Part shown: positions 3,663 to 28,542 of the stretch, one piece after another
Numbering within the stretch: position 1 is the stretch's first letter
Layout: every line of letters starts with the position of its first letter
From: a virus
Taxonomy: Duplodnaviria > Caudoviricetes
Reading direction: 5' to 3' (one strand)
Virus record (IMG/VR): IMGVR_UViG_3300033073_000243
Location: 1-64,000 of that record
DNA: 64,000 bases
Made by a program: the position numbers and the translations under genes
The notes under the pieces: model-generated
What the model was told of the DNA's origin: nothing
The model's database searches: none
The model's input: the letters and a program-made list of their open reading frames with translations, nothing else

Positions 3663-4213
3663 GATACTTAGAGATTATACAAGAATTCCAACTCCCAAAA
3701 AATTCGTGGGAGTTACTCATTTCCAATGCCGATAAAGAAGAGGCCGGAGATGAGCTTGTAAATCTCGTACAAACCGCGTATACTAATACACCTGACGGAA
3801 GTTTTGTTAATAGTATCCGTGATGTTATTCCTAGCGATTGGAATGTTATCGATTGGGATCAAGATCCTGATGTAGATAGTTGTGTATTTTACAGAAAAGC
3901 AAGAAACAACGAATCGTGGGTTGGATATAAAATACAAGGTATTGGACATGATGGTACAAAAACAAGTAAAGATAAAGCTATTACTAAAGTTCAATCAATG
4001 TTAACAAAGCCAGGCGTATGGATAGAATCTAGTGATGCTATGCGTCACATACTTAAGAAATTAAATGTTCCTTCGGTAGAAGATTTAAAAACATTACAGG
4101 CATTATTCAACGATCCTTTCTTAGAAAAATTTGATAATGACACTTACGACAGGCGTCTACCTAGCGGCAAAGTCGTAAGGGAAACAGTATTTGGGAATCC
4201 TAAACTAAAATGA
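3659..4213 (+). CDS. Hypothetical protein with CTS-like leader
   Basis: Coupled ORF (ATGA overlaps at both ends), starts MRYLEIIQE; no family recognised. Confidence 0.75.
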   Translation: MRYLEIIQEFQLPKNSWELLISNADKEEAGDELVNLVQTAYTNTPDGSFVNSIRDVIPSDWNVIDWDQDPDVDSCVFYRKARNNESWVGYKIQGIGHDGTKTSKDKAITKVQSMLTKPGVWIESSDAMRHILKKLNVPSVEDLKTLQALFNDPFLEKFDNDTYDRRLPSGKVVRETVFGNPKLK

Positions 4214-5349
4214 GATTACTAGAATTAAAAGAAGCCGCAGATCCTAAACTAGGTCGTGCATTTAACCACTTAGAGGATTTAGTTTTCTTCTATGGTACTA
4301 AGGGCACGATCGAAGCTCTTGAGCATTTAAAAGATATGAACACTGAGCAAGGCAGCGGTAGTGTTCGTATGAAATGGGACGGCAATCCTCAAATCTATTG
4401 GGGCAGAGAAAACGGACAAATCATTCCTCCACACGGACATGCTCAGTGGGGTCGTGCTAATTTGCCACAAACAGGCAAAGATGTAGCAGACTACATTATG
4501 GCAACAGGCAAAGCAACTACTCCAGAAGAGATTGCAAGTCGTCAACAGTTTGCAGACAAGTTTGCAAGTCTTGCAGATTTATTTGCAGCCGCAACTCCAG
4601 AAACATTAGATGGTAACAGTACATATTATGTCTATGCTGATGCATTATTTTTAAACAAACCAGAACTAGTAGATGGCGTTTACACATTCTGTCCTAACCC
4701 TAAAAGTCAAACTTGCTATCATGTAAAAGCTGATAGTGAATTAGGAGAACGCATCAAACATGCCGAAGTTATGGTTGTTGGTCATGCTTATTTTACAGCA
4801 CACGGACAGCCCGACAGCGCCCAGATTCCTATTAAAGACTTTAGTCAGTTTAACACAAACCCTAAACTAATTGTACTCGGTCCTATCTATAATGTTGCAC
4901 CTGTTGCTATAGATACAACAATGATAGATCAAGTCGAGGAACATATTAAACGTCATGCTCATAATGTTGATACTTTCTTAAATGGTACGGCAGGATTAAG
5001 TGACTTAAAACAAATCATATACACTTATGTCAATCAAAGTGCTAAGGCAAAACAGTTAGATAGTTTAAGTGCAGATCATTTCTTCCAATGGGCGGCGACA
5101 AAAGTCTCTGTGCCAAAGCAGGAGAAAATAAAACAGTTAAATAGTATGAACAACAATGCGTTGGAAGAGATATTTAAAATTGTAAGAGCGATTCAAATAT
5201 TAAAAGACAATGTCATTGACCAGATCGAAGCAGGACCTAAAGCAGACATTTGGGACACACATGGAGAAGGTCGTGTGCGTTATGCAGATACAAATAAACA
5301 ATTCGGTAATGTTAAGTTCGTTCCGAGAAAGCGTTGGACACCACAATGA
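4210..5349 (+). CDS. DUF6267-like protein (ligase-type KxDG nucleotidyltransferase fold)
   Basis: NHLEDLV...MKWDGNPQIYWG resembles the T4-like phage family found beside cytidylyltransferases; KWDG matches ligase motif I. Confidence 0.55.
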   Translation: MRLLELKEAADPKLGRAFNHLEDLVFFYGTKGTIEALEHLKDMNTEQGSGSVRMKWDGNPQIYWGRENGQIIPPHGHAQWGRANLPQTGKDVADYIMATGKATTPEEIASRQQFADKFASLADLFAAATPETLDGNSTYYVYADALFLNKPELVDGVYTFCPNPKSQTCYHVKADSELGERIKHAEVMVVGHAYFTAHGQPDSAQIPIKDFSQFNTNPKLIVLGPIYNVAPVAIDTTMIDQVEEHIKRHAHNVDTFLNGTAGLSDLKQIIYTYVNQSAKAKQLDSLSADHFFQWAATKVSVPKQEKIKQLNSMNNNALEEIFKIVRAIQILKDNVIDQIEAGPKADIWDTHGEGRVRYADTNKQFGNVKFVPRKRWTPQ

Positions 5350-6485
5350 AAATTAGACAATTATTAAAAGAAGCCGCTGGCGTTACTGCCGCATTTGCAT
5401 TTGGTCGTTTTAATCCAGCTCATCAAGGTCATATTGCCGTTTGGAAAACAGTTCAGAACGCAGGTGTTAAATGGTACATTGGTACTAACCCAACAACACA
5501 CGGACCAAATGACCCACTAACATTCGATCAGAAAACAGCGTGGATGGAAGCAATCTATCCTGCTATTGCCGGACATATTGAACCTGCTAACAGTGTTTTA
5601 TTTTTAGCCGCAAAGATTTATCAAGACTTGGGCGGTAATCAAGACTCTACAGTAGCTTATATTACAGATGAAACAGACTGGGCGTGGAGTGGTAAACTAT
5701 TAAATCAATACAATGGTGTTGAAGGTGCTCATGGATTCTATAAGTTTTCACAAATCGTTCATGTGCCTAGTCCACGAGTAAGTAGTGCAACAGCATTGCG
5801 TGATGCGGCTCGTGCAGATGACAAAGTTGCTTTCTATCATGCTAGCGGTACTGATCCTAAATTAAAAATTGCAGGTAAAACTTATTTTGATACTGTGCGT
5901 GAAGCTTGTTTAGGTGCAGATGCAAACAAAGCATCTAAGCGTAAACCTAAAGCAGAAAGCGTAGAAGAAGCAAGTCTTGCAACTATGCGTGATTATTTTG
6001 CAGGAAATAAAAATGCGGAAGATGAATTAAAGATAACTCAAATTCGTAAGCATTACGAAAAAGAAATTCCCCCAAATTCTAAAATTCAGAAAAAAGAATT
6101 CAGAAGCCATCATGACTATGACAAATGGTTAGAAAAGAATGGTTTAAGTAAAGTCGGTGGTAATCTAAAAGAGGTGGCTCCTCCTGGTATGGAACAATGG
6201 ATTAAAGATCGTAAGTCTGAGTTTAAAAAGCGTTACGGTGATCGTTGGCAAGAAGTTCTGTATGCCACAGCGTGGAAACAACATAACAACGAAAGCGTAG
6301 AAGGTATCGAAAATCAATCGTCAGAAGAGCTTTTAGAATACTTACGCAAGATACATAAGCGATGGGCCTTAGTAAGTAAAGGCGAAGGTAAACCTTTAGT
6401 TTATTACAAAGGCGAAGGTAAACCAAGTAAAGAATGGGTCAAGAAGCAAGAGCGTCGTATAGGTTACTTTAAACACAAAAAATGA
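5346..6485 (+). CDS. HxGH cytidylyl/adenylyltransferase-like domain plus C-terminal small modules
   Basis: FGRFNPAHQGH (HxGH) and RVSSATALR motifs; C-terminal third is split by SVEEA, LKEVA and SVEGI; true start 5346. Confidence 0.7.
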   Translation: MKIRQLLKEAAGVTAAFAFGRFNPAHQGHIAVWKTVQNAGVKWYIGTNPTTHGPNDPLTFDQKTAWMEAIYPAIAGHIEPANSVLFLAAKIYQDLGGNQDSTVAYITDETDWAWSGKLLNQYNGVEGAHGFYKFSQIVHVPSPRVSSATALRDAARADDKVAFYHASGTDPKLKIAGKTYFDTVREACLGADANKASKRKPKAESVEEASLATMRDYFAGNKNAEDELKITQIRKHYEKEIPPNSKIQKKEFRSHHDYDKWLEKNGLSKVGGNLKEVAPPGMEQWIKDRKSEFKKRYGDRWQEVLYATAWKQHNNESVEGIENQSSEELLEYLRKIHKRWALVSKGEGKPLVYYKGEGKPSKEWVKKQERRIGYFKHKK

Positions 6486-8695
6486 AATACAAAGAAATAT
6501 TTGAACAAATCATCAACGAAATTAATATGAGTCCGGCTGGTCTTCGTAGTCTAGTGGCCGATATTAATGCTCAAGCAGGTATGGAATTTGAAATGATTGT
6601 TCCGGGTGCGGCGGAAAGTGCCAGCAGTGATGATTACTTAGAACCAGATTACGATTCTAACGAAAGTACTCGCAGCTTTAGACAAATTCGCGATTTCTTC
6701 CATGATGGTGATTACAATGGACGCAGAGATGTAGAACGCTTGGAACAACGACTACTAGACGATTATATGGACAGCGATTTCTTAAGTGAAAAGAAACAAG
6801 AAGCATGGGGAGAAGCTTCCTATGATGCTGTTAGAGATTTAGTTGACAGAGATTATGCAGACGACTTGAGAGATCAAGCAACTGACGAAATTTCTGCTAA
6901 GACGCCAGAATTTGGTGTTAACGGTGATGAGTTCCAAGAAGCAGTTTTAGAGCGTTACAATGAATTAGTTCAGGAAAAAATTGACGACATTCTAGCTAAC
7001 ATGGGTAGCGAGTATGATGAAGCTTATGAGGAATGGGAACAAAACGAATGGCAAGATATATGGAATGACTTCGACTTACAAGAAGAATGGCTAGAACATG
7101 AAGGTCTAGAAACTATGAGTGATGTTGCCGATAATTACGATATCACATGGCCTTACTATTACAATCCAAACGATGGCGGCGGAGAAGTCAGTGTAGACGA
7201 TGCGGCAGACAGTTTTAGTCGTGCTATGGGTAAGCCAGTAAATGCCAGTTCCAGTTATCATGGTGCTCGCAGAGAAGCAGGGCATTATGTTGTAGAACCC
7301 GACGGCAGTTTAGAAGCAGACGATGATGAAGACGGTGGTTTAGAGTTTGTTAGTCCGCCTATGCCCATCAATGAGTTACTTGACGACCTAAAGAAAGTTA
7401 AAGCATGGGCAGACAAAACCGGATGCTATACAAATGACAGCACAGGTTTGCATATTAACGTCAGCGTTCCTGGATGGCAAGGCGATGTTGCTAAATTAGA
7501 CTATGTTAAACTTGCAATATTATTAGGCGACGAATATATCTTAAACGAATTCGGTCGCCAAGGTAATACATATTGTAAGAGTGCTTTGAAGATTGTCAAA
7601 GACAATATTACACAACGTCCAGAAGATGTAAAGCTATTACTAGATAAAATGCGTGAACATTTAAACACAAGCGCATCTAAATTGATACATAGCGGTGCCA
7701 CAAGCAAGTATACAAGTATCAATACCAAGACAGGTTACATTGAATTCCGCAGTCCAGGCGGCGATTGGTTAAACGAAAACTTTGACAAAATTGAAAATAC
7801 GCTTTATCGTTTTGTTGTTGCTATGGATGCTGCCGTAGATGAAACAAAATACAAACAAGAATATGCCAAGAAACTTTATAAGCTATTGTCTGGTAATGAG
7901 AAAGACAACACAAACACATTAACTTATTTTGCACAATATGCCGCAGGAGAATTACCACAAAGCGCATTAAAGAGTTTTATTAAACAGGCACAATTAGAGC
8001 GTAAAGTAAAGAAAGATCCAACAAGTGGACAGAAATATTGGTGGAGTGTTGGGCTAAGGTCTAATCCAAATTACAGAATTGAAGTAGTTGGTGCTAGTAA
8101 GGCGGAAGCCATTTCTGCCGCTATGGACAGTAACACCGATTTAATGAGATATAACGCTGACACCGACTTTACTGCAAAACCAATTCGTCCATTTGATGAT
8201 AGCTCAGTAAAGGCTACAGTAGGTGAACCACAACCTGCAGGTGGTTATAGGAACGCACTAAGTCAAACTGACATAGAAAATAGATTAGGTTGGGGTGGTC
8301 AAGAGGCAGATGCCAACTACGAAGTTGTAGATCGTAGCAATAATCGATCTGTATTTAAATTTATTGCTAATACTCCGCAAGAAGCACAGAGAAAATATGG
8401 ACAGGTTCTCGATGTATTTGGATTCCCGCATGATACAGAGAACTATGGCTTTAGGGAAATTGCTTTACCAGGGTCAACATTAGATTTACAACGTCAAAGA
8501 GTTGCCGCGGGTGATTTTACGGGCCAATGGAAAGTAATGATTGACGGCGAGGAAGTATACAGATTTGGTGGCGCCGGTAACAGCCAAGGCGATGCTAACA
8601 GAATCGCCCGAGAATGGATCAGACAACAAATATCAAGAGGAACTCTAAACCCAGCAGATAATGCAGATATAACTGTTGTACCAGTAATGAATTGA
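6482..8695 (+). CDS. Putative amidoligase (COOH-NH2 ligase type 2) with acidic insertion
   Basis: GMEFEM, GLEFVSPP, TNDSTGLHINVS, KYTSIN and IEFRSPGG are the conserved amidoligase-2 motifs; long D/E-rich insert. Confidence 0.7.
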   Translation: MKYKEIFEQIINEINMSPAGLRSLVADINAQAGMEFEMIVPGAAESASSDDYLEPDYDSNESTRSFRQIRDFFHDGDYNGRRDVERLEQRLLDDYMDSDFLSEKKQEAWGEASYDAVRDLVDRDYADDLRDQATDEISAKTPEFGVNGDEFQEAVLERYNELVQEKIDDILANMGSEYDEAYEEWEQNEWQDIWNDFDLQEEWLEHEGLETMSDVADNYDITWPYYYNPNDGGGEVSVDDAADSFSRAMGKPVNASSSYHGARREAGHYVVEPDGSLEADDDEDGGLEFVSPPMPINELLDDLKKVKAWADKTGCYTNDSTGLHINVSVPGWQGDVAKLDYVKLAILLGDEYILNEFGRQGNTYCKSALKIVKDNITQRPEDVKLLLDKMREHLNTSASKLIHSGATSKYTSINTKTGYIEFRSPGGDWLNENFDKIENTLYRFVVAMDAAVDETKYKQEYAKKLYKLLSGNEKDNTNTLTYFAQYAAGELPQSALKSFIKQAQLERKVKKDPTSGQKYWWSVGLRSNPNYRIEVVGASKAEAISAAMDSNTDLMRYNADTDFTAKPIRPFDDSSVKATVGEPQPAGGYRNALSQTDIENRLGWGGQEADANYEVVDRSNNRSVFKFIANTPQEAQRKYGQVLDVFGFPHDTENYGFREIALPGSTLDLQRQRVAAGDFTGQWKVMIDGEEVYRFGGAGNSQGDANRIAREWIRQQISRGTLNPADNADITVVPVMN

Positions 8696-8705
8696 GGATA
8701 ATACA

Positions 8706-8882
8706 ATGAGATTAAATGAATTAACAACAGACAAGTTAGCAAAATATAAAACGGCAGCGGCTGCTGATGCAAGTGCTGCTGATAAAGAAGGCGACTACAA
8801 ACGCGGCGATAAGCGTTTTAGTGGAATTATAAAAGCAACAAAAAAACAATTCGACAATGATGCTAAAAAGAATAAATCTTAA
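8706..8882 (+). CDS. 58-aa protein with CTS-like leader (not in ORF track)
   Basis: GAGGA RBS; MRLNELTTDKLAKYKTAAAADASAADKEGDYKRGDKRFSGIIKATKKQFDNDAKKNKS*. Confidence 0.8.
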   Translation: MRLNELTTDKLAKYKTAAAADASAADKEGDYKRGDKRFSGIIKATKKQFDNDAKKNKS

Positions 8883-9054
8883 ACGAGTATTTGTATTAAT
8901 TGCAACTCATGCGGCAGTATTTGCCGTTGGTGTTTACTATGGGTTAGAAGTATATGAAGCCTACATTAATGACCAATTTATTGTAGTGCCTAACGATGTT
9001 AACCGACAAGCACCATTTAAAGAATTTAAAGGTACAAAATATACAACGGTATGA
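8857..9054 (+). CDS. Possible small membrane protein
   Basis: One hydrophobic helix (VFVLIATHAAVFAVGVYYGL) and an ATGA overlap with the GH19 gene, but it overlaps the upstream ORF by 26 nt. Confidence 0.35.
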   Translation: MMLKRINLKRVFVLIATHAAVFAVGVYYGLEVYEAYINDQFIVVPNDVNRQAPFKEFKGTKYTTV

Positions 9055-9737
9055 AAGTTTCCGAGATAATATTAGAACAAGAATTAGATGAAGGTTGGAA
9101 AGACTGGGTAGCAGGCGCGGCTATGGGCGCAGCCGCATTAGGAGCAACTCCTGCAACTGCTAAACCAATGCCAATGCCAACGCAACAAGTATCTCAACAA
9201 TCATACAGTCCAGAAGAAAATAAAATTATTAAAACGATTTTACATCCTGCTGCCAAAATTTTAATTAAAACAGCTCGCGAAGCAGGATTAAATGGTGCAG
9301 AGCTTGCACAGTTTGTAGCTCAATGTGCTCATGAAACTTCTAACTTTACAAGCTTGAAAGAGTTCGGAGGTAAGTTAGATTTTAAAAAATATGACCCTGT
9401 ACACAATCCTCGCAAAGCAAAAATATTAGGTAACAAGAAAGCAGGCGATGGTGCTCGCTATCATGGCCGAGGATATATTCAACTAACAGGCCGAGACAAT
9501 TATAAAAGGGCAGGAGAAGCGTTAGGACTTCCGTTGGAAAAGCATCCTGAACTTGTAGAGAAACCCGAAGTGGCTGCTAAGGTTGCAGTTTGGTTTTGGA
9601 AGAATCAAGTTAAACCAAAAGTAAATAACTTCCAAGATACTGCACAAGTCACAAAACCAATTAATAGCGGATTGAAGGGTCTAGAAGACAGACATAACAA
9701 ATTTGCAGCCATTATGAATTTATTAAGGAGAAGCTAA
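9051..9737 (+). CDS. GH19 chitinase/endolysin-like peptidoglycan hydrolase
   Basis: AQFVAQCAHETSNF, YHGRGYIQLTGRDNY, AVWFW and INSGLKGLEDR are GH19 phage lysin motifs. Confidence 0.85.
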   Translation: MKVSEIILEQELDEGWKDWVAGAAMGAAALGATPATAKPMPMPTQQVSQQSYSPEENKIIKTILHPAAKILIKTAREAGLNGAELAQFVAQCAHETSNFTSLKEFGGKLDFKKYDPVHNPRKAKILGNKKAGDGARYHGRGYIQLTGRDNYKRAGEALGLPLEKHPELVEKPEVAAKVAVWFWKNQVKPKVNNFQDTAQVTKPINSGLKGLEDRHNKFAAIMNLLRRS

Positions 9738-9931
9738 TGAGAGTAAAAGACATTGTAGACGAAGCGGGCTTTTCCTATAAAGGATATCCTTGTACTAAAG
9801 ATTGCAGTGGACATATGGCAGGATATGCATGGGCAGACGATAGAGATATCAGCGACGAAGATGAATGCCCGTATCGTCCTACACACCCAAGCTTCTGGGA
9901 AGGCTGTAAGAGTAAAGCAGAAGGTAAATAA
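9737..9931 (+). CDS. Small Cys-containing protein with CTS-like leader
   Basis: MRVKDIVDE leader then CTKDCSGHMAGYAWA...C...SFWEGC; TAATG coupling. Confidence 0.75.
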   Translation: MRVKDIVDEAGFSYKGYPCTKDCSGHMAGYAWADDRDISDEDECPYRPTHPSFWEGCKSKAEGK

Positions 9932-9937
9932 TTTATT

Positions 9938-11284
9938 ATGCGTTTATTAGAATTAAAATCACTTGCCGAAGCCGCACTTACTGCTGGCGAAATCACTACA
10001 TACCCTTGGAGACAAGAGCTATTCATCAATAAGATTAGAAACGGAGAGCCTTTTGAATTAACCACAGGGGAAGAAGTAACTATTGATCCTGCTGAAGCAG
10101 ACCGCTTACAAGGTATGCTGGACTCTGGTACATTCGGAGGGACTGTTAAAATTGCATTAGACGACGGTACTATGCTATCCCTAGGCAAGCTACAAAAAAC
10201 TGTGGAGTTCCAAAAAGAAGGTGGTGTTAAAGGCGAAGGCGTTTCTAATAAAGGTGACATTTCCGAAGGTATCTTATCTGCTGCATTGTTTGCTAAACTT
10301 AAAGCTCGTGTCAACAAACAAATTGGCACAGTAACTCCTGATGACATTTGGTCTGTTGTTGACAGTTTAACTAAAACAGGCAAAAACACATACACAGTTA
10401 ATGTAAAAGACGGCAAGTCTATGGTCAATGATAGTATTGTCTTTACATTAATCTTACCTCCAGAAGCTTATAGAGATTTCATCGATCCTACAAAGCGTCC
10501 ATTATTAAAAGATCAAACAGACAGTGCCGCATTGTTTGCCAACAGCGAAGACAACGAAGAATTTAGTAAGTATTTCTATCTAAACGGACGTCCTGATATT
10601 ATTAATATCATTTGCGATGGCGGTAATCCAGAGAAACAAAAGATCAGTAAGGTCGATATTGAAGTTGTTATTACAGATAAATTAACAGGTAAAGTTGATC
10701 GTCGTCGTTTAGATATTAGCTTAAAAGTTGATGCCGCACAGTTCGGCCAAGTTGGTGTTGGTAGTACTAAAGACTATGACTTCTTTGAAAAGCAAGTTTC
10801 TTTATGGAATAAGTTTGGTGTTGATGTTCGCCCTTCTCAAGAAGGTTTTGACGAAGCATACAAAAAAGGCGGATTAGTTGATGCGTTAGCTTACATATAC
10901 GAATTTGCTGCCGATGTTATTGCTACTTTATTAGCCGATGATAATAGCGAAGATGAATATATGTTTATTACAGAACTAGCAAAGGGTATTAACTACTATG
11001 CTACTTTAGGTAATCCAAACATTATCCTATTAGACTTCTCGTCAGGAGGGTATAAGATGATGCGTTTTGACGATATCGAAGGCAAGCTAAAAGGCATTAA
11101 GCTAACAGCGTCTTATAACTATGACACTAAGTTACCTCAAGTTGACATTTATGATGCTAATACAGGTAAGTTGTTTGTTAAAGTCCGTGTAAAGATTACA
11201 GCCAAAGAACGCCGTAATTATATCGAAAAAGGCCCATTAATGACTGAACTATTGGGTACTAAGGTCAAGCGATTGAAAAAATAA
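9938..11284 (+). CDS. Possible PD-(D/E)xK nuclease-fold protein with CTS-like leader
   Basis: KGDISEG (helix Glu), KVDIEV and DISLK fit a restriction-endonuclease-like core; weak by-eye match. Confidence 0.4.
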   Translation: MRLLELKSLAEAALTAGEITTYPWRQELFINKIRNGEPFELTTGEEVTIDPAEADRLQGMLDSGTFGGTVKIALDDGTMLSLGKLQKTVEFQKEGGVKGEGVSNKGDISEGILSAALFAKLKARVNKQIGTVTPDDIWSVVDSLTKTGKNTYTVNVKDGKSMVNDSIVFTLILPPEAYRDFIDPTKRPLLKDQTDSAALFANSEDNEEFSKYFYLNGRPDIINIICDGGNPEKQKISKVDIEVVITDKLTGKVDRRRLDISLKVDAAQFGQVGVGSTKDYDFFEKQVSLWNKFGVDVRPSQEGFDEAYKKGGLVDALAYIYEFAADVIATLLADDNSEDEYMFITELAKGINYYATLGNPNIILLDFSSGGYKMMRFDDIEGKLKGIKLTASYNYDTKLPQVDIYDANTGKLFVKVRVKITAKERRNYIEKGPLMTELLGTKVKRLKK

Positions 11285-11311
11285 ATCGACATAAATTCGA
11301 TAAATAACATT

Positions 11312-11509
11312 ATGAAAATTAAAGAACTTATTAGTGAAGATGCAAGTATAGGCGGTATTAGTTCCGGCGGTTTTGCTACAGCACCTGCGGGTAATATTTT
11401 TGCCGTTCCTATGAAACGCAACCAGCCGCGCAAGCGTCCTAAAAAAGAACAAAACGAATTCGCTAATAGGCGTGATAATAAGAATGTTATCGAACAGGAT
11501 TTAAAATGA
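11312..11509 (+). CDS. Small protein with CTS-like leader
   Basis: MKIKELISEDASIGGISSGG; TAAATA box 5 nt upstream of the ATG. Confidence 0.7.
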   Translation: MKIKELISEDASIGGISSGGFATAPAGNIFAVPMKRNQPRKRPKKEQNEFANRRDNKNVIEQDLK

Positions 11510-12333
11510 GCAAACAGAGAGCCCAACAATTATACAAGCTTGCCGATAGTTTACTTAAGGTAAATGTAGCCAGTTTATCTGAAGCACAAAAAGCAGAGCG
11601 TAACTCCATGGTTGCTCGTTTACAAGAAGAATTAAAAACTCTTAAAGGTATCAAAGAAGCTCCTGGCGACTTAGGTAGCCAAATCGTTTATCTATACAAC
11701 AATATATATGAACTAGGAGATGATGCAGTAGACCACTTATATAACAATGCTCCGTTATTTGCACAATATTGGGATCAATACGAAGGCGATTTGGATAGTA
11801 TTATCCAAGAAGTACCTCCACAACAATTACAAAAGATTTATGCAGAGTTAAACAAGGCAGCACAAGAAGAAGGTTTAACTGAAATGGATTCACAAGGCTA
11901 TACAGGAAGTCGTGATCGTAAGAGCTCGAGCAAGTATGGTAGCCGCGATGATTATGAATTAGGTCAACCAGAAACAACATTAGGTAAAGATTCTATTATG
12001 ACTGGTCATGAAGCTTCCAATCAAGCATTGGACGCTCTTAAAAATGCATTTGACGACGAATATGACGAAGTAGAAGAAACAACAGGTAAGTTCGATCGTA
12101 AGGAAATTGCTCCAGGTCGTACACAATACACTCGTAAGGATGACACTTATACAACAGATGGAAGCAGTGTTGCTGACTACAGAGTATTAGCTCCGGGTCG
12201 TTCTATTGAAGATGACAACGAGCGCGAATTCAATCCACGAGATGATGAAGAATATGAGTTGGAAGAAGCGATAAGTACAGAAGCTTACGACAGACTTAAA
12301 AAAGTTTTCGACTTTAGTAATTTTAAAGGTTAA
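11506..12333 (+). CDS. Acidic multi-module (polyprotein-like) protein
   Basis: Segments separated by IKEA, LTEM, VEET and LEEA motifs. Confidence 0.7.
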   Translation: MSKQRAQQLYKLADSLLKVNVASLSEAQKAERNSMVARLQEELKTLKGIKEAPGDLGSQIVYLYNNIYELGDDAVDHLYNNAPLFAQYWDQYEGDLDSIIQEVPPQQLQKIYAELNKAAQEEGLTEMDSQGYTGSRDRKSSSKYGSRDDYELGQPETTLGKDSIMTGHEASNQALDALKNAFDDEYDEVEETTGKFDRKEIAPGRTQYTRKDDTYTTDGSSVADYRVLAPGRSIEDDNEREFNPRDDEEYELEEAISTEAYDRLKKVFDFSNFKG

Positions 12334-12336
12334 TAT

Positions 12337-13698
12337 ATGAAATTATTTGAACTATTTGAGAGCCCAGTTATTGCTGGTGCAAATAACTTAAAAGCAATTG
12401 CACAAGCGGCAACTAGTGCCAGCGATGCACACATCACATTGGGCGGCGAACCAGTTACTTTAGAGTATCCTGAAGCTCGCTTTATCTATGGCTTATACAA
12501 GAAGTCATTGCAGTCTGGTACACAAGAACAATTCTTACAGATGTTAACTAACCCTGCAAGTTTTGATAGCTTAATGAAACCAATGCGTAATATGCTATAC
12601 AAAGATCGCGGTCCAGAAATGGCTCAGGCGGCTGCTACCCGTATCGGTCAACCTGGTGTAGAAGAAAGTATCGACAAACCAGTAACAGGTACAGAAACAA
12701 TGAAGCACTTAGTTCAGCGTTTCCCTAAAGAAGTTAAAGACTTTATCGCAGGTGGCGAACTAGACAGCGACTTATACGAAGCATTATTTGATTACTACAA
12801 CTTACATGGCGAAATGCCATATGGTGTAGCTAAAGCTCGTACAGGCGATCCGTTCGAATGGGTAACACAACAATTTGACCGTGATGCACAAGAATATGTA
12901 ACTGAAGCTAAACAAGCTTACAAAAAATTAATTACAGAAAGCAAGAAACAAGTTAGCGAGCGTTGGGATGACGACGATGATGACTGGTATGGTTTTAACG
13001 ACAAAACTCGTAAAGCTGCCACAGGCGGTACAGTCACACAAACAGGACGCGGTGTTATCCATAAAGGCAAATATGGTAGCGAATATCAAGGTGACGATGA
13101 GGAAGAAGATAAGAGCCCATTTGCTATTCTCAAGACTGCTAAAGTAAAAGAGCCTCGTAGTGCTGGCCGTCCAAGTGCTAACATTAAAGCAACAGACGAT
13201 GGCATTAGCGTAACATCTTACTCTAGCTGGTATCACAAATCTAAGCGTAGTCACCCAGAGCGTAAGATTGTTGGTAGTGCAGAACGAGCAGTTGCCGTTA
13301 TTCCAAAAGGCAAAAAGTTTGCAGTTGTCGGTTCGTGGGATGGAGCTAAAGGCTTAATCAATGCTAAGGCAGGTGAAGTTGTTACAGTTGACCAACTAAA
13401 AGATTATAAATCTGGTCGCGGACGTCCAACTACACGAAAAGAAAGTGCAAGTTATCGCAATCGTGCTTTGCGTGAATGGATCGAACAATTAGTAGTTGTT
13501 TCAGAAGGCAAGAACCATATGGGCGAAACTGAATACAATACTTACAGCGGATGGAGAGCAGCTTGTAAAAGAGCAGGTGCTAACGAATTCGACGGAGATC
13601 GTGACATTTGCCAAGCTAAGAAGGACGGCAAAGGCGTAGGTGAATGGGACGGCGTAAGTGGTTCCGTTTATGATGACGCACATAAGAAAGCACAGTAA
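12337..13698 (+). CDS. Multi-module (polyprotein-like) protein with CTS-like leader
   Basis: MKLFELFES leader; internal VEES, VTEA, ITES, VSER and VSEG sites delimit compositionally distinct segments. Confidence 0.75.
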   Translation: MKLFELFESPVIAGANNLKAIAQAATSASDAHITLGGEPVTLEYPEARFIYGLYKKSLQSGTQEQFLQMLTNPASFDSLMKPMRNMLYKDRGPEMAQAAATRIGQPGVEESIDKPVTGTETMKHLVQRFPKEVKDFIAGGELDSDLYEALFDYYNLHGEMPYGVAKARTGDPFEWVTQQFDRDAQEYVTEAKQAYKKLITESKKQVSERWDDDDDDWYGFNDKTRKAATGGTVTQTGRGVIHKGKYGSEYQGDDEEEDKSPFAILKTAKVKEPRSAGRPSANIKATDDGISVTSYSSWYHKSKRSHPERKIVGSAERAVAVIPKGKKFAVVGSWDGAKGLINAKAGEVVTVDQLKDYKSGRGRPTTRKESASYRNRALREWIEQLVVVSEGKNHMGETEYNTYSGWRAACKRAGANEFDGDRDICQAKKDGKGVGEWDGVSGSVYDDAHKKAQ

Positions 13699-16139
13699 TG
13701 CGTTTAAATCAAATAACAGAAGGCCTAGCTGACGAATTTGCAGCTATGGCAAGAGCCAAAGGCATGAATCCACGGATTCATGGTACTCCTGAACAAGAGC
13801 GTGAGCGCACACGCCAGGCTCTTGCCCAACGAGATGCAGAAAGAGCAGAAGCACAGAAACGCGATACTGAAAATGATATTGCTCAACTTCCGGAATTAAA
13901 AGCTCAATATGATAAAATGAAGAGCGAATACGAATCACTAGGCGGAAGTAACTGGCAATATGCAGATCGCGAACAAAACTTATCCGATGGAGAACGCAAG
14001 GCTCGTTCAATGGAGCCCGAGTTAAATAACCTCTGGAGAAGAATATCTCGTGCCGAAAAGGCACAAGGTGTAAGCGAAGCAGGACCAACACGTCGTGGTT
14101 TTTTACAAAGCATTGGTGCAGCAGGTTTAACTGCGGCTGGTGTTGCATCTGCTAAAGGTGGCGGCGGTGGTGGAGGTCACGGCGGTGGTGGAGGACATGC
14201 TAGCTCTGGCGGTCATGCTAGTTCAGGTGGCAAAGGAGGTGGTGGTAAAGGTGCTAGTGCAGGAGCCAGAGGAGCGATGCACGGTGAACCATCTGCTAGA
14301 TTCGTACCTGGTCAACCATATGTTCCAATAACAGGTCATCATGTTGAACAAGGTGCTGGCAACGATGCTAATAAACAAGAATACATCAAGTTCCTAACAA
14401 GTTATGCTAATGCTATTCGTGCAGGTAAGATGACTCCTGAAATGCGTAAGTGGTTGAACAACCATCCTGAAGTCATCGAGGACTTGAAGCGTGGTAAGTA
14501 TGGATTGACTATGGGTCAACTTAATGCTGACTTGGTAGACATTGAATCTCGCAAGAATTATCACATGATGCGTGAAGGTGTATCTACGACATGGGAAGTT
14601 AGTTATGATTACGGTCCACATATGACTAAGACCGTTACGGTCAAAGCTAAATCAGAAGAAGAGGCTGCGGCTAAAGTAGAAAAGGCCGCAGAGAAAAAAG
14701 GCCTCAACATAATGATAAACTCTGTAACACCAGTAGAGCAAGGTGTGGTGGAAGGCGATGATCGCGGTAATTATCACAGCATTGCTAGAGCCGCAAACCA
14801 AGCAAGTAGAACAGCAAAGTCTAAACAAGATCACGCCAAGGCTGCTGACTTACACGACCGCGCCGCGACATATGGTCTATCAGCGGGCCAAGACCAATCT
14901 GTAATTCGTGACCATCAAATGGCAGCATGGGAACACAATCGTGCTAGTAAAAAAATGAAGGAAGATGTGGCGGAGGGCATAAATGACAAACCCGAAACAG
15001 GTGACAAGATTGTTTGGTATCATAGCAATCATTATCCTAAACTTGAAGGTGAAGTTGTTGGTTGGAAAGACGGGCATCTAATTGTTAAATCAATTGACCC
15101 TAGCCCTAGAAATACAGAAAAGACCGTAGCAACATATCGTGTGCCTAAGAATAATATAATGAGTGTCGAAAAGCAAGGTGTGGCGGAAGACCAATTAGAC
15201 GAAGCCAAGATTGCTTCAACTGAAGATGAAGATTTCTTTCATAAAGGAAAGAAAGTTGGTAGCATAACAAAAATCACTCTAAAAGATGGTATGGTATTTT
15301 ACCGTGCAACCGCAGGAAATTCTCATATTTCCGGTTCAGATACCCGTCAAGAAGCATTAAGAGATTTGAAAGAACTCTTGCGTAGAGAAAAAGAGGAAGG
15401 TGTGGCGGAAGGCTCGGATAACATCACTGCTGTATTTTCTGGTTATGGAAATTATATGAAAGGTCGTGCTGCCAATGTATTCAAACATTACGGTATTACC
15501 GTATTAGACCAACAATATGATGAAGATGAAGATATCGCAGAATATACAGTTAGCGGCAGTAAAGAGGCATTGGATCAAGCAAGAGCATACTTGGAACGCA
15601 GTGACCAATTTGGTGGCATGATCCTAAAGCAAGGTGTGGAGGAGGCAGAAAATGTAAGTCATTTACACAAAGCCTTAGACCGTGCTTTGAGTAAAGAAAA
15701 GAAAGCAAGCCCTGCACAAGTTCAACGCAACAAAGAGCGTTGGGCACAGCGTCAAGCAGAAAAGAATAAAGAAGTAGACGAAGGTGTAGCAACATCAATG
15801 CCAATGCAAGATGCTGTAAAATTATTGCGTCAGTATGGTGCAGATAACTTTAAAACAACTACAAACGAATTACATTTTTATAAAAACGGTCGAGCATTTA
15901 GTGTTGATTTGGTAATGAATCCAGATACTACTCGCAGTGTAACTTTAAGCAGTTTAAATGCAGCCACTCGTGGATTAAAAGGTAACAGTGCTTTACGTCA
16001 AGCGATTGAATCCATCGATGCAAACCAAAAACGAGTAGGTCAAGTTCCAGGCGAAGAGAAAGCTAAAAAGATCGGACAAGTACTTGCTAAACCTCCTAAG
16101 CAACATCCTTTTAAGGGACGCTTAGTAGGCGGTGAATAA
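13698..16139 (+). CDS. 813-aa modular polyprotein with repeated QGVAEG-type linkers
   Basis: Linkers ITEG, QGVSEA, MREG, QGVVEG, EDVAEG, QGVAED-QLDEA, EGVAEG, QGVEEA, VDEG and AIES separate about 10 unrelated modules of 40-165 aa. Confidence 0.8.
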   Translation: MRLNQITEGLADEFAAMARAKGMNPRIHGTPEQERERTRQALAQRDAERAEAQKRDTENDIAQLPELKAQYDKMKSEYESLGGSNWQYADREQNLSDGERKARSMEPELNNLWRRISRAEKAQGVSEAGPTRRGFLQSIGAAGLTAAGVASAKGGGGGGGHGGGGGHASSGGHASSGGKGGGGKGASAGARGAMHGEPSARFVPGQPYVPITGHHVEQGAGNDANKQEYIKFLTSYANAIRAGKMTPEMRKWLNNHPEVIEDLKRGKYGLTMGQLNADLVDIESRKNYHMMREGVSTTWEVSYDYGPHMTKTVTVKAKSEEEAAAKVEKAAEKKGLNIMINSVTPVEQGVVEGDDRGNYHSIARAANQASRTAKSKQDHAKAADLHDRAATYGLSAGQDQSVIRDHQMAAWEHNRASKKMKEDVAEGINDKPETGDKIVWYHSNHYPKLEGEVVGWKDGHLIVKSIDPSPRNTEKTVATYRVPKNNIMSVEKQGVAEDQLDEAKIASTEDEDFFHKGKKVGSITKITLKDGMVFYRATAGNSHISGSDTRQEALRDLKELLRREKEEGVAEGSDNITAVFSGYGNYMKGRAANVFKHYGITVLDQQYDEDEDIAEYTVSGSKEALDQARAYLERSDQFGGMILKQGVEEAENVSHLHKALDRALSKEKKASPAQVQRNKERWAQRQAEKNKEVDEGVATSMPMQDAVKLLRQYGADNFKTTTNELHFYKNGRAFSVDLVMNPDTTRSVTLSSLNAATRGLKGNSALRQAIESIDANQKRVGQVPGEEKAKKIGQVLAKPPKQHPFKGRLVGGE
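14064..15647 (+). repeat. Dispersed in-frame 18-bp linker repeat, consensus cAAGGTGTGGcGGAaGgc (6 copies)
   Basis: 14064 caaggtgtaagcgaagca; 14739 caaggtgtggtggaaggc; 14961 gaagatgtggcggagggc; 15174 caaggtgtggcggaagac; 15396 gaaggtgtggcggaaggc; 15630 caaggtgtggaggaggca. All are in frame with ATG 13698. Confidence 0.85.
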
Positions 16140-16197: not shown

Positions 16198-16638
16198 ATG
16201 GATGAATTAATACAAGCACTGAAAAAAGTTTTAGGCAATCACTATGCGTATGCATTGAAAGCACAAAACTTTCACTGGAACGTCGAAGGACCAGACTTTA
16301 GTCAATACCACGCACTATTTGCTACAATTTATGATGAAGTATATGGCAGTGTAGATACTATCGCCGAACGAGTCAGAACGCTAGGTGCTTATGCTCCTGG
16401 TAGTTTCAGTCGTTTTGCACAACTATCTGAAATCGAAGATCAAGTTGAAGTTCCTAATGCACTATCTATGATTCAAAAACTTCTTGCAGATATAAGTATT
16501 GTACAAGCAAGTATTAAGGCATGTTATGATCTTGCCGAAATAAATGGCAATCACGGACTAAGTAATTTAATGGCGGACAGACAAGATGCATTTGCAAAAC
16601 ATGCATGGATGCTAACTGCTACATTAAAAAATAGATAA
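16198..16638 (+). CDS. dps: Dps (DNA-binding ferritin-like protein)
   Basis: KAQNFHWNVEGPDFSQYHALF...DTIAERVRTLG...KHAWML are the Dps ferroxidase signature motifs. Confidence 0.92.
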   Translation: MDELIQALKKVLGNHYAYALKAQNFHWNVEGPDFSQYHALFATIYDEVYGSVDTIAERVRTLGAYAPGSFSRFAQLSEIEDQVEVPNALSMIQKLLADISIVQASIKACYDLAEINGNHGLSNLMADRQDAFAKHAWMLTATLKNR

Positions 16639-20974: not shown

Positions 20975-21213
20975 TGGATAATATTCAGGAACAAATACTT
21001 GCAGAGCTTAAAAAGCAAAACGAGTATTTTGAGAAAATGGACTGGAAGCTTTGGATGCTTCAAAATATGATTAAGGCTATTGCCGAAGAGAATGGTTATA
21101 CATTTGATATCGAAGAAAACACAGCAACAGTCGAAACATATGAAGAGCCAGTAGAGCGCACAACTTCTGATCTCAAACCTAAATATGATGATAGTAATTG
21201 GAGTTTAGAATGA
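20974..21213 (+). CDS. Hypothetical protein
   Basis: TAATG-coupled 79-aa ORF. Confidence 0.65.
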   Translation: MDNIQEQILAELKKQNEYFEKMDWKLWMLQNMIKAIAEENGYTFDIEENTATVETYEEPVERTTSDLKPKYDDSNWSLE

Positions 21214-21587
21214 CCAAAAAAATGATATGGGTTACTTTCCAAAAGGAAGGTATTCACAAGTATCCAGCGGCATTAACTGATCCTAACTTAGCTACAGGCG
21301 ACGAATACGATGTTAGCTTTTTAGGATATCCGCATCGTCATATATTTCATTTCAAAGTAGCAATTGAAGTGTTTCATGATGATCGTGACATTGAATTTAT
21401 TCAATTTAAACGCTGGCTAGAAAACTTATACAAAGAAGCAACATTAACTCTTGACTACAAGAGTTGCGAAATGATTGCAGAAGATGTATATAATCAAATT
21501 AACGCAAGATATCCTAATAGGGATGTCTGGATTGATGTAAGTGAGGATAATGAAAATGGATGCCACATTCAATTTAACAAAGGGTAA
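21210..21587 (+). CDS. QueD-like T-fold protein, DpdL-type
   Basis: EGIH...LGYPHRHIF...RDIEF...SCEMIA gives three His Zn ligands and a C-terminal Glu as in PTPS/QueD. It has LxxxHRHxF instead of QueD CxxxHGH, which I recall as the DpdL signature. Confidence 0.65.
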   Translation: MTKKMIWVTFQKEGIHKYPAALTDPNLATGDEYDVSFLGYPHRHIFHFKVAIEVFHDDRDIEFIQFKRWLENLYKEATLTLDYKSCEMIAEDVYNQINARYPNRDVWIDVSEDNENGCHIQFNKG

Positions 21588-21597
21588 AGTTCGCACT

Positions 21598-21954
21598 ATG
21601 AACCAATACCATAACAATGTTAGTCGTGCGATGATTCACATCAACGACATTAAGTATGACCTACTAAAGATTGCAGAAATGTATGACGGCATTCTGCAAG
21701 AAGGCTTAGGTCATTTGGCAGCAGATATGTTCCAAGCATATCTAAGTGACCTCCGTGGTAATGAATGGATTCATGACTACGAAGTTACTGAAATTGTTCT
21801 TAAAGAACAAAGCTATACTTACGATGTAAGTATTCAAATTACTAAGGATCGTACTCCTAAGAAACTAAAGATCCACGTCGGTCTTTACAAGAGTGCGTGG
21901 CCGGAGTTGGCTGCTACTATGAAATATACAGGCAGCGGATATGTCTCTAAGTAA
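21598..21954 (+). CDS. Hypothetical protein
   Basis: ORF between the QueD-like and DpdA-like genes; likely start ATG 21598. Confidence 0.6.
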   Translation: MNQYHNNVSRAMIHINDIKYDLLKIAEMYDGILQEGLGHLAADMFQAYLSDLRGNEWIHDYEVTEIVLKEQSYTYDVSIQITKDRTPKKLKIHVGLYKSAWPELAATMKYTGSGYVSK

Positions 21955-23485
21955 AAAATCAAGAGTCGACTTACAAGCAAAGAATAAAGACTATGCAGTC
22001 TTTCTTCCGAGCATTAGCGGCTTTTACCAAGAGCAAGTAAGCAATCAGCAACAGGATCCTAACTGGATCTCATCTGATCGCTTACCGGCAGAGTTTGAAC
22101 AAGGAGTAGAAGGACTTAACTTCCTTAACAAGGAACAAGCTTACTTCTACTATCCAGATGCTCTTTACTCTGCTGGTCACGCTCAACTGAATATAACTAA
22201 GAGCGCAACAGAAGAAAGTATGATCCAAGACCGGGATCGTAAAAACACTTTCATCTTAGGCGACTCTGGTGGTTTCCAGATTGGTAAAGGTGTTATTAAC
22301 TTTGACTGGCAACACTTCTGGGAGAAGCAAGGCGATGCAGGTTATATCGGTAAAGCAGATAAAACCCGTATGGCTATTCTTAATTGGTTAGAGTACACTG
22401 CTGATTACAGCATGGTACTTGATATTCCAACTTGGGCGGCTGCTCCTATTAACCAAGAACGCACAGGACTTAGAGACTTTAAAGATTGCCTTAACGGAAC
22501 ATTGTTTAACAATGATTTCTTCTTAAAGCATCGTCAAGGTAAAACTAAATTCCTAAATGTTCTGCAAGGCGGTAACAACGTCGATGCTGAGATTTGGTAC
22601 GAAGCTGTCAAACACTATCCATTTGAAGGTTGGGCGATGGGTGGTAATAACATGAAGGACGTGGACTTAATGTTACGCCGCTTGATTAAACTTCGTGATG
22701 AAAAATTGCTAGAGCCAGGTCGTGACGTCATTCACTTCTTAGGTACAAGCAAACTCGAACTTGCTTGTTTGTTAACTGCGGTACAGCGTAACATTCGTGA
22801 GCATGTTAATCCTAACATGAAGGTAACTTATGACTGTGCTAGTCCGTTCTTGGCAACTGCCTACGGTCAAATCTATACACAGCATGTACACTTGAATAAG
22901 CGTTTTAGTTACATCATGGATAAAGCTATCGACGACAAACGATTGAGTGGTAGTAAGCTTCCATTGCCCTGGACTAGTCCTATCGCAGAACGAGTTACGA
23001 TGGGCGACTTGTGTTGGTACAAGCCAGGTGATACTAACAAGTTTGGCAAGGAATGTAAAACATCGTGGGATAGTTTCAGCTATGCAATTATGATGGCACA
23101 TAATGTCTATCAACATATCGAAAGCGTTCAACGAGCAAATGCATTACTCGATACGGCATGTGCATTGCATAAGCCAGATCCAAGCAAGTTTAGCAAAGCT
23201 AAAGGTCTAAGTGCAGAACTAAACAACTGGGTTCCGCGAGCAGTTATATATGGTGTCGAACTAATTAACCGTGTGTTTACTAGCGAAACTCCTTATACTG
23301 AATTAGACAATGCACAAGCATTATTAGCAGAACTTAATAACAAGAAAACTCTTAAGACTACTGCGGCAAGTCATAGTATGTTGTTTGAAGTCATTGACCA
23401 AGGCAACGACAATGATGCAGAAGCTTCTGAAAATTGGGATGAAGATACTGCTAACGAATTACTACACGAAGCATTAGATGAGTAA
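21941..23485 (+). CDS. dpdA: tRNA-guanine transglycosylase-like DNA deazaguanine insertase (DpdA family)
   Basis: GDSGGFQIG, MVLDIP, VLQGG, GWAMGG, IHFLG, YDCAS and AHNV follow the TGT fold in order; clustered with folE, queE and a queD-like gene near DNA polymerase. Confidence 0.75.
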   Translation: MSLSKKSRVDLQAKNKDYAVFLPSISGFYQEQVSNQQQDPNWISSDRLPAEFEQGVEGLNFLNKEQAYFYYPDALYSAGHAQLNITKSATEESMIQDRDRKNTFILGDSGGFQIGKGVINFDWQHFWEKQGDAGYIGKADKTRMAILNWLEYTADYSMVLDIPTWAAAPINQERTGLRDFKDCLNGTLFNNDFFLKHRQGKTKFLNVLQGGNNVDAEIWYEAVKHYPFEGWAMGGNNMKDVDLMLRRLIKLRDEKLLEPGRDVIHFLGTSKLELACLLTAVQRNIREHVNPNMKVTYDCASPFLATAYGQIYTQHVHLNKRFSYIMDKAIDDKRLSGSKLPLPWTSPIAERVTMGDLCWYKPGDTNKFGKECKTSWDSFSYAIMMAHNVYQHIESVQRANALLDTACALHKPDPSKFSKAKGLSAELNNWVPRAVIYGVELINRVFTSETPYTELDNAQALLAELNNKKTLKTTAASHSMLFEVIDQGNDNDAEASENWDEDTANELLHEALDE

Positions 23486-24365
23486 AGCATTAGTAGTCGG
23501 ACTAGGCATGGGGCAACAGTATGCCCTGTGGCTAGCCGAATTAGGTTACGATGTTTATACTGTAGATATTGATCCTAGCAAGGCAGCATCCTATACAGAT
23601 GTTGCTATTGCTTTGGGCGATCGTCCTGTTTTAGACATTGTTTATATCGGTACTCCAAACTGGACACACGAGCCTATTGCTAGACAAGTTGCTCCGCATA
23701 GCAAACTAGTATTGGTAGAAAAGCCGGGCGTCAGGTATAGCAAAGATTGGCAACAATTGGTTGCGGCTTATCCAGACACTCGTATTATGATGGTTAAGAA
23801 CAATCAGTTCAGACCAGAAATAAAACGATTCAAACAATTAGCAGACCAAAGCGAACGAGTATATGTTCGTTGGAATAATGCCAATCGTATTCCGCATCCA
23901 GGTAGTTGGTTCACTACTAAATCTAAATCATTTGGCGGAGTGAGCAGAGACCTTATGCCTCACATGCTCAGTTATTACTGTGCGTTGACAAACTATACGC
24001 AAGGTGTTAAAATTAAAGGGTACGCAAAACAAAACTATGAACTCGAGGATATTCATAATACTGATTACGGCAGCGTTAATCCTAATGGCACTTACGATGT
24101 CGATGACTTCTGTCACTTTGAATTCAAGAATGGCGACACCACTTGGATTTTAAGTGCAAACTGGAAAACAAACTTAGATAACGATGATAGCAGTATTGCG
24201 TTTGGTATGAAGAACTCTGCCGTTAGACATGAGCTAGGTTTGTGCCCTGGAGTAGCGTATAAGAACATGATAACACTTGCGATGAACAACCTAAATAACA
24301 ATGAGTTCTGGCAACAACAGCTAGCACAAGATCTGTGGATTCATCAACAAATAGAAAATCTATGA
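23478..24365 (+). CDS. Gfo/Idh/MocA family oxidoreductase
   Basis: LVVGLGMG Rossmann, VYIGTPNWTH, VLVEKPG and GGVSRDLMPH motifs. Confidence 0.85.
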   Translation: MSKALVVGLGMGQQYALWLAELGYDVYTVDIDPSKAASYTDVAIALGDRPVLDIVYIGTPNWTHEPIARQVAPHSKLVLVEKPGVRYSKDWQQLVAAYPDTRIMMVKNNQFRPEIKRFKQLADQSERVYVRWNNANRIPHPGSWFTTKSKSFGGVSRDLMPHMLSYYCALTNYTQGVKIKGYAKQNYELEDIHNTDYGSVNPNGTYDVDDFCHFEFKNGDTTWILSANWKTNLDNDDSSIAFGMKNSAVRHELGLCPGVAYKNMITLAMNNLNNNEFWQQQLAQDLWIHQQIENL

Positions 24366-25270
24366 ACAGAGTATTAGTTACAACAGGCGAAGGTGAGTTT
24401 GAGGAAACCGCATACGATATTCCTGCATTACTAGAAGACGATCACATTTTCGTTCGTTCAATAATGACAGGCGTATGTCGTAGCGACATCGATATGATGC
24501 AAGGCAATTTCGGTCCATTGCCTAAACACATGCAAGGGCATGAAGGACTAGCACAAGTAGTAAGGATAGGTAAAAATGTCAAAGACGTCCAAAAAGGCGA
24601 CTATGTCGCAACCAGAGGAGAACCAGCTTATGCCGACGAATACATTGTTCGTCCTAGAGAGTATGTTCGCGTTCCAGAGGCTCTTCCTAGATATATCCTT
24701 GAGCCCGTGGCTTGCGGCATCAATGTGGTACAGCAACCCATTCGTGAAATTGCCGAACGAAGCGGTCCAGGACAACGACTCTTAATACTAGGCAGCGGCT
24801 TCTTAGCTTGGGTCGCTTACAACACAATCAAACTTAACCATTTGGATTTTGACATTACTGTGTTTGGACACAGCAACAAAGAACTTTGGGGAGATGCACT
24901 AAGTCCAATATATGATGGGAAGTTTGATGTTGTTATTGATCTTAGCCCGCATTGCGATGTATTCCTAAATGACATGCTCAATAATGAAGCTCTTGTTGTT
25001 ATGGGTGTAGAGAAGCAAGTAAACACTGACTTTGCTAGATTACTTTGGAAAGCTTGCACTATAGTATTTCCAAGTCCACGCACCGATAAATTCTACAAGT
25101 GTATGCAAGATGCGGCATATTGGGTAGAGAATGGTGACCTTGTGGTTGATAACTTTTGGACAAAAGGTTATAATAGAGATACAGAATGGCAACAAGCCTT
25201 TGCAGACGGTCTAAACAGACCTGCTGGTTATAGCAGAGGTTACATATATTGGAATAACAATGGCACTTGA
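24362..25270 (+). CDS. Zn-dependent medium-chain dehydrogenase (sugar/polyol dehydrogenase-like)
   Basis: GVCRSD...GHEG catalytic Zn ligands, ILEPVACG and LILGSG Rossmann; true start 24362. Confidence 0.85.
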   Translation: MNRVLVTTGEGEFEETAYDIPALLEDDHIFVRSIMTGVCRSDIDMMQGNFGPLPKHMQGHEGLAQVVRIGKNVKDVQKGDYVATRGEPAYADEYIVRPREYVRVPEALPRYILEPVACGINVVQQPIREIAERSGPGQRLLILGSGFLAWVAYNTIKLNHLDFDITVFGHSNKELWGDALSPIYDGKFDVVIDLSPHCDVFLNDMLNNEALVVMGVEKQVNTDFARLLWKACTIVFPSPRTDKFYKCMQDAAYWVENGDLVVDNFWTKGYNRDTEWQQAFADGLNRPAGYSRGYIYWNNNGT

Positions 25271-25775
25271 TACAGTTGAAAGAAAAGCGGCAACATACTT
25301 CATCGGCACAGAAGTAGAACATACAGCAATGTACAATGAAAAAACTTTGTTTGTTGTAGGAGTTCGTCCTGTTGATGAAGTCGCGAAACATGCTAGACAG
25401 CATAACATTCGTCATTTATACTTTGGCACAAGTCAAAGTTTCCATCCTAAAACAAATGAAGAGTGGGCAGAGTGGAATAACATGATTACTCCACTACTAC
25501 AAGAAGGCTTCTGGGTTACATTAGACTTTGGTGTAGAATATGCAGATACTTTGCATGAAGAAGGATGGTGCGAGTTTAATACTTTTATTCCTATGATTAG
25601 TGTTAAGCTTCCTTACATTAAGTTATACAACTATAATGCAACTCTTAAGATTGACGACACCACATGGGGTCACAGTAATCCAGGAGTATGGTGTCATAGT
25701 TTACATGACTTAATGGATCGTAAAGTTTACACCGACTGGAAAGACTATGTAGGAGACGAACCAGTAAATGGCTAA
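25260..25775 (+). CDS. Hypothetical protein within the modification cluster
   Basis: 171-aa coupled ORF with conserved-looking YFIGTEVEH, HLYFG and GVWCH motifs. Confidence 0.7.
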   Translation: MALDTVERKAATYFIGTEVEHTAMYNEKTLFVVGVRPVDEVAKHARQHNIRHLYFGTSQSFHPKTNEEWAEWNNMITPLLQEGFWVTLDFGVEYADTLHEEGWCEFNTFIPMISVKLPYIKLYNYNATLKIDDTTWGHSNPGVWCHSLHDLMDRKVYTDWKDYVGDEPVNG

Positions 25776-27678: not shown

Positions 27679-27681
27679 AGA

Positions 27682-28500: not shown

Positions 28501-28542
28501 CTAAATACATTTGTGACCCACCACATTAACTCGGAGAAAAAA

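Follow-up and report, generated by a model that had tools for sequence, protein, structure and literature searches.

A 15-nucleotide coding repeat joins exchangeable cassettes inside a polyprotein gene of a large uncultured T4-related phage

The DNA analyzed here (the window) covers the initial 64 kb of a linear virus record of 84.6 kb, which is approximately 22% complete. Its source is a large uncultured T4-related phage, and the nearest cultured polymerases, those of Sinorhizobium phage Phosso and Atu_ph07, are about 50% identical. ORF 13698-16139 encodes a cassette polyprotein (Table 1) that has no match in any cultured phage. Its homologues number 113; most span merely 7-20% of the 813 aa, at identities of up to 96%. 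None of the modules reached the Pfam or NCBIfam cut-off, and none had a significant PHROG match. The polyprotein starts with an N-terminal targeting-type leader that ends in hydrophobic-x-E, and its ORF closes a run of genes with T4 capsid-targeting-like leaders of this form. The leader pattern fits 14 of the 15 genes from 1508 to 13698, but it is loose and the polymerase fits it too. The run includes a GH19 hydrolase gene (9051-9737) and a gene (9938-11284) for a 448-aa protein of PHROG 3560 that has a D..K motif resembling that of nucleases. A Dps/ferritin gene (16198-16638 in the window, and related loci) is the commonest neighbor of such arrays, found at 63 of 226 loci. The ORF lists also indicate a large radical-SAM/sugar-tailoring block and a 7-deazaguanine-type DNA modification block (48084-64000 and 21210-33832).

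Table 1. Joints and cassettes of the polyprotein ORF, with the comparisons that delimit them.
Feature	Position	Strand	Evidence or remark
Cassette polyprotein, 813 aa, T4 capsid-targeting-like leader MRLNQITE	13698..16139	+	ORF; no whole-protein family match
Decayed joint QGVSE, 4 changes from 15-mer	14065..14079	+	Homologue alignments begin or stop here
Cassette opening with Tat-signal-like peptide (RRGFL, hydrophobic stretch, ASA)	14079..14588	+	Sequence; L121 homologue 72%
Linker-like EGVST, 7 changes, old or relic joint	14575..14589	+	Homology edge at aa 293-298
Joint QGVVE, 1 change	14740..14754	+	Breakpoint vs L449, L457, L113, L419
Cassette, 74-aa unit	14755..14961	+	DNA 91-92% identical in L449, L457, with different neighbors there
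Joint EDVAE, 2 changes	14962..14976	+	Both changes also in L449 despite different next cassette
Cassette, 71-aa unit	14977..15174	+	DNA 92% identical in L449, L455
Joint QGVAE, exact AAGGTGTGGCGGAAG	15175..15189	+	Breakpoint in L449, L450, L455, L458, L021
Cassette, 74-aa unit	15190..15396	+	Joint-to-joint DNA 94-95% identical in L450, L458
Joint EGVAE, exact 15-mer	15397..15411	+	Breakpoint in L450, L451, L458
Cassette, 78-aa unit	15412..15630	+	Joint-to-joint DNA 91% identical in L451
Joint QGVEE, 2 changes	15631..15645	+	Breakpoint in L451, L456
Cassette, 50-aa unit	15646..15780	+	DNA 93% identical in L456, from joint onward
Decayed joint EGVAT, 5 changes	15781..15795	+	Following module 92% identical (protein) in L176

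The modules of this ORF are joined by the 15-mer AAGGTGTGGCGGAAG, which codes for G-V-A-E and is absent from the rest of the 84.6-kb contig. The six linkers described in the first-pass annotation (14064, 14739, 14961, 15174, 15396, and 15630) were all found, and two more decayed linker-like sites with GTA, EGVST at 14574 and EGVAT at 15780, have to be added to its tally. Our recount agreed that valine is encoded by GTG in five of the six linkers, with GTG, GCG, GCG, GCG, and GAG as the next codons, and that exact copies lie at 15175 and 15397. G-ending codons had been called unusual for this DNA, and they are: GTG accounts for 9.2% of Val codons and GCG for 8.6% of Ala codons in the window background, at which five or more GTG in six linkers would arise with P = 3.7e-5. 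The genome had also been described as AT-rich; its G+C content is 39%. The 14-mer first singled out as the repeat has nine matches at up to three mismatches (1.7 expected; 0 of 100 shuffles), so its enrichment stands. Its borders have shifted, as the conserved core is 15 nt long, begins two A's ahead of that 14-mer, and ends one G sooner. A 16-mer at up to three mismatches matches five times in the entire 84.6-kb contig, each time inside ORF 13698-16139.

Conservation of the joint in other phages was assessed by pattern scans of IMG/VR and JGI metagenomes, with at least 120 stretches listed from each. The identical 15-mer is present in frame in hundreds of contigs, and 168 of 175 copies among the matches listed sit in a long GVAE frame. 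Copies are always on the coding strand and are grouped in one genome region. The same 15-mer occurs in phages whose polymerases are just 53-63% identical to that of the window, and no alternative consensus was found among them. Joint codons are unchanged across contigs of 33-52% G+C. Synonymous positions were compared with codon usage in a DNA-unbiased set of 65 loci picked via DNA polymerase alone, 11 of which yielded GVAE codons. GGT was used in 27 of 29 cases, GTG in 27 of 29, and GCG in 24 of 29, against backgrounds of 42, 18, and 8%. This departure from background usage bears out the earlier claim that the linker is kept as DNA beyond the need of the peptide. At least 120 loci were also listed for a common-codon control pattern, so raw counts do not tell the two patterns apart; among the matches listed, the control was multi-copy in 1 of 120 loci and the 15-mer in 35 of 120. 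Eight arrays found by the control use the GTG-GCG consensus at their other joints. No non-coding or reverse-strand template copy at up to two mismatches was detected in five large contigs.

The joint is also present in a few bacterial assemblies. A search of GTDB gave six 20-mer matches, with multiple copies solely on a 9-kb contig of a MAG, probably a phage sequence placed in the bin. Two bacterial MAG contigs carrying the joint, L325 (CAILDT010000116.1; three copies) and L322, probably come from phages and were assigned to Bacteroidetes and Betaproteobacteria bins, which makes them unreliable as host evidence. A complete related jumbo phage of 453 kb (G015, locus L185; polymerase 52%) has a prohead protease and zero copies of the joint, which makes it a ready-made control when gene contents are compared. 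Our literature search returned no paper describing the motif or the system.

Homologues of the polyprotein mostly match one module, and their alignment ends cluster at the linkers. At the DNA level, 14 alignments extend from one joint to another with 80-98% identity, and the sequences on either side are unrelated. Five window cassettes are found in other phages at 91-95% DNA identity, with ends at or near joints and unrelated flanks; recurrence at this identity runs from joint to joint for 14737-14976, 14961-15189, 15169-15409, and 15391-15648, and the recurring stretch 15628-15773 starts at a joint. Locus L449 has an extra cassette between two cassettes that adjoin in the window. In four in-frame pairs of indel alleles (126, 204, 468, and 801 bp), joint-X-joint is reduced to one joint. 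One genome carries a 150-bp cassette twice, 100% identical and in different contexts. Tandem duplicate cassettes were not seen. Cassettes are seldom shorter than about 145 bp, and their lengths show no helical phasing (p 0.16-0.9). Breakpoints of gain, loss, and reordering map to the repeat and keep the frame, as had been proposed for a crossover site, and by sequence comparison the 15-mer is a crossover joint for module exchange.

Short repeats can mislead assembly, and the apparent shuffling might be an artifact of this kind, since all of the data are metagenome assemblies and a number of contigs stop at a joint or close to one. We find this hardly credible: the repeat is far below read length, the exchange partners are 2-20% apart and were obtained in separate studies, the frame is kept across junctions, imperfect joints are breakpoints too, and one polyprotein was assembled identically on 15 contigs. 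Contig ends lying no more than 200 bases from a joint (one end of G004, and G007, G009, G013, and G018) may reflect population variation at the arrays.

Where the exchange falls was examined in 602 pairs of shuffled junctions, 312 sharing the upstream cassette only and 290 the downstream cassette only, with nine pairs sharing both cassettes for comparison; the pairs are non-independent, and most loci were chosen by the 15-mer pattern itself. The core is exactly the 15-mer, because bases up to -1 track the upstream cassette and bases from +15 track the downstream cassette. Core changes are shared in 24 of 545 and 32 of 515 cases in these shuffled pairs (4-6%; approximately 26 and 24 by chance), compared to 14 of 16 at unshuffled junctions. 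This rarity of inheritance at shuffled junctions indicates that mostly intact joints swap and that changes come later. Mid-core changes are inherited with the upstream cassette in 6 of 261 cases, and inherited changes in the 5' part favor the upstream cassette, with 15 seen where chance would give 8.4. Some joints with one or two changes have still swapped neighbors (in L449, L457, and the window), and the changes in the window's two-change joint at 14962 are common to L449 although the next cassette differs. Exchange anywhere in a short identity patch fits these patterns better than a fixed cut. Variants are weakly shared within arrays (p 0.01-0.07). In L449 (817-1290), one G-to-A change (EDVAE) is common to three consecutive joints, and this variant still exchanged neighbors. 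Three loci (L137, L182, and L209) have a double joint, GVAE-GVAE, upstream of their homologue of window 15795-15980, where a fresh consensus joint is fused right before an older decayed one.

Codon choice can also be fixed at the RNA level, for example by ribosome pausing between domains or by an internal Shine-Dalgarno-like signal, with shuffling as a by-product. Rare codons do lie at domain borders here, and AGGTG and GGAAGG resemble Shine-Dalgarno sequences. We consider this explanation very improbable because joints that have settled drift to common codons, swaps reset core changes instead of passing them on, no start codon stands at a fixed distance past the site, and the codons stay the same whatever the G+C content (33-52%).

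Integrons exchange cassettes through an integrase, and the first-pass annotation had called the array integron-like. Tyrosine recombinases of PF00589 are absent from the phage's own contig and from five relatives of 235-343 kb, one of them 99% complete. Nothing over the cut-off was found for tyrosine or serine recombinases, IS110, HUH transposase, topoisomerase IB, or ERF in five to ten large relatives, or for PF00239, PF07508, PF01548, PF01797, and PF01028 in large relatives. Reverse transcriptase (PF00078) and Cas1 (PF01867) are both absent from five large relatives. Three weak, isolated, sub-cut-off matches in single genomes were the yield of the recombinase-type searches. The common neighbors of the arrays (Dps, polymerase, and other core or cargo genes) include no linked recombinase, and the 15-mer shows no attC-like hairpin or dyad, with no folding beyond that of shuffles on either strand (z -1 to +0.9). 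With no integrase, other recombinase, or hairpin found, crossover not confined to one base, and recombination seen even at some mutated sites, an integron-like mechanism is not supported. UvsX/RecA is encoded in 8 of 17 partial relatives.

We lean, with some reserve, towards the explanation that crossover takes place within the 15 matching bases by means of general T4-type machinery, as for the PeSL cassettes discussed below, and that the 15-mer is at once a shared connector and a prohead-protease peptide. Recombination in T4 needs <50 bp of homology (PMC2839356). As DNA, the 15-mer would be an identity patch for crossover between otherwise unrelated sequences, and the phage would rely on its usual T4-type recombination machinery (UvsX/RecA family, or replication-linked annealing). 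Cassettes of 150-250 bp could in this way be excised, inserted, copied, and swapped in frame, both within a genome and between co-infecting phages, possibly through a circular intermediate. A cassette whose joints match all others would move best, so that the consensus would be maintained by use; matching joints would open a common cassette pool, and the shared connector would be retained. Joints that no longer move would decay to ordinary A-ending codons. Comparison of the sequences is the source of the DNA conservation, the breakpoints at the 15-mer, the in-frame gain and loss, and the decay pattern on which this account is built. Against plain homology, the single consensus over polymerases 53-63% identical is more uniform than drift and homogenization easily give, the core has sharp edges, 15 bases are short for efficient RecA-type exchange, and cassettes have a lower size near 145 bp and no tandem duplicates.

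In another explanation, cassettes are excised and inserted by an undescribed sequence-specific factor that recognizes the 15-mer, making a true intragenic cassette system. Candidates are a phage or host recombinase, a nicking enzyme, or a synapsing protein such as small terminase. The consensus is universal over wide phage divergence, the core edges are sharp with little mid-core inheritance with the upstream cassette (6/261), and single cassettes move as units with a lower size limit near 145 bp. There is also a precedent in the gp16-dependent amplification of T4 gene 17, which is protein-dependent recombination at a short box (PMC3012670). Nevertheless, no recombinase family matched over the cut-off in large relatives, the common neighbors offer no candidate, dyad or hairpin and helical phasing of cassette length are lacking, no DNA base is invariant past peptide need, and mutated sites have recombined. 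We regard such a factor as a tentative possibility. A family-wide intragenic cassette system, with an undescribed specific factor, a 15-nt target that is also the protease site, and a mini-protein library shared by distant jumbo phages, is likewise a speculative prospect.

RecA filaments are more stable on TGG/TG-rich DNA (PMC3763553), and the TG-rich make-up of the joint may help RecA-family proteins to load. A stronger version would have physical properties favor the site, with a TG- and purine-rich strand that starts the exchange by folding as a two-tier G-quadruplex or by loading RecA-family proteins well. The sequence GGTGTGGCGGAAGG has four GG runs, two of them made by fixed synonymous G's, and such properties could account for the choice of word while remaining compatible with plain homology. 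However, the last G lies outside the core and tracks the downstream cassette, of the 81 sites with one change, 61 have only three GG runs, and few bases are changed as often as the synonymous G's. This stronger version is improbable.

In T4 and its relatives, the prohead protease gp21 cleaves after Glu at hydrophobic-x-E-type sites (PMC9026906). In imperfect joints, only the T of the Val codon and the GA of the Glu codon are nearly invariant, whereas the synonymous G's rank with the bases that change most; long-term selection thus acts on hydrophobic-x-E. Site-free cassette homologues, including stand-alone genes with their own leader, have hydrophobic-x-E in the exact joint register in 56% of cases and E in 67%, suggesting that each cassette is a mature domain that was recruited at a natural site of cleavage. 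Among 383 such proteins, 11 Tat-signal-like peptides were found, all directly behind a linker or hydrophobic-x-E and, by pattern, 10 of them at 2-4 residues behind it. The window has such an internal peptide three residues past a linker (14079-14165). Tat signals function at the N-terminus. Because they need an N-terminus and yet follow joints here, cleavage appears to be implied, with the reservation that the signals may be mutually related. Their position also suggests that injected cargo may be exported to the periplasm. A T4-type prohead protease (PF03420) was found in 10 of 18 partial relatives, with no match in the phage's own contig (22% complete) or in relative G002 (99% complete). The GVAE peptide is likely a prohead-protease cutting site, and the earlier proposal that the joint doubles as a predicted protease site gains indirect support from the invariant V/E positions, the in-register natural sites, and the Tat-like signals. 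Read as peptide, V-x-E would be the site at which a head-packaged polyprotein is cut to small proteins for injection.

Cassette exchange at short repeats is known from the PeSL cassettes of T4-type phages (RB49/phi1), for which mini-circles were shown and no dedicated recombinase was found (PMC2839356; PMC4122927). There too, a short repeat flanks accessory units, and recombination between copies gains, loses, and moves the enclosed unit. However, PeSLs are an intergenic early promoter plus terminator stem-loop around whole genes, whereas the joint described here is 15 nt of coding sequence lying in frame within one ORF, hairpin-free, and identical across distant phages. T4 IPI-III and Alt share with the polyprotein a leader ending in hydrophobic-x-E, cleavage after Glu (predicted here), and small, highly variable cargo (PMC9026906; PMC3012670), and a T4-type prohead protease is encoded by some of the relatives; the T4 internal proteins are single small genes, while here one leader is followed by many cargo modules, linked to each other through a joint conserved as DNA. 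In the T-even adhesin gp38, in-frame crossover in short conserved coding (glycine-rich) motifs swaps variable segments (PMC3157838). Those motifs are structural and fixed in number and order; here module number, order, and identity are free, and the motif has the appearance of a protease target.

Integrons are also arrays of unrelated small cassettes at a repeated site that are gained, lost, and reordered, but here no integrase or attC hairpin was found, and cassettes are fused in one frame. Unlike the shufflon (Rci/sfx), all copies are direct and on one strand, with no PF00589 invertase. Retroelements or DGRs and CRISPR-like arrays differ in that the five large relatives have no reverse transcriptase and no Cas1. 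Polyvalent proteins likewise hold many disparate domains in one polypeptide that is probably injected and processed (PMC5512222). They have recognizable enzymatic domains and zincin peptidases, and their summary description mentions no repeated DNA joint (PMC5512222); the modules here are 50-80 aa without a family match. The system acts like PeSLs and integrons with T4-style internal-protein cargo, and it lacks the defining features of integrons, shufflons, PeSLs, retroelements, and CRISPR arrays.

The system shows how an expandable cargo array can evolve within a single gene, in which one word keeps the frame, permits swaps, and probably frees the product. Searching with the joint as a tag could bring to light hundreds of small, mobile phage proteins that are probably injected and whose function is unknown, and by analogy with T4 IPI such cargo may counter host defenses. 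The joint also opens to direct test the old question of whether T4-type phages shuffle at short repeats by general machinery alone or require a dedicated factor; should such a factor be real, it would add a new tool for recombination whose coding target is 15 nt long. Cargo domains also occur outside the arrays. The window has a stand-alone 58-aa gene with its own leader (8706-8882), and in L110 and L116 (81-83% DNA identity) its domain is joint-fused as the first polyprotein cassette.
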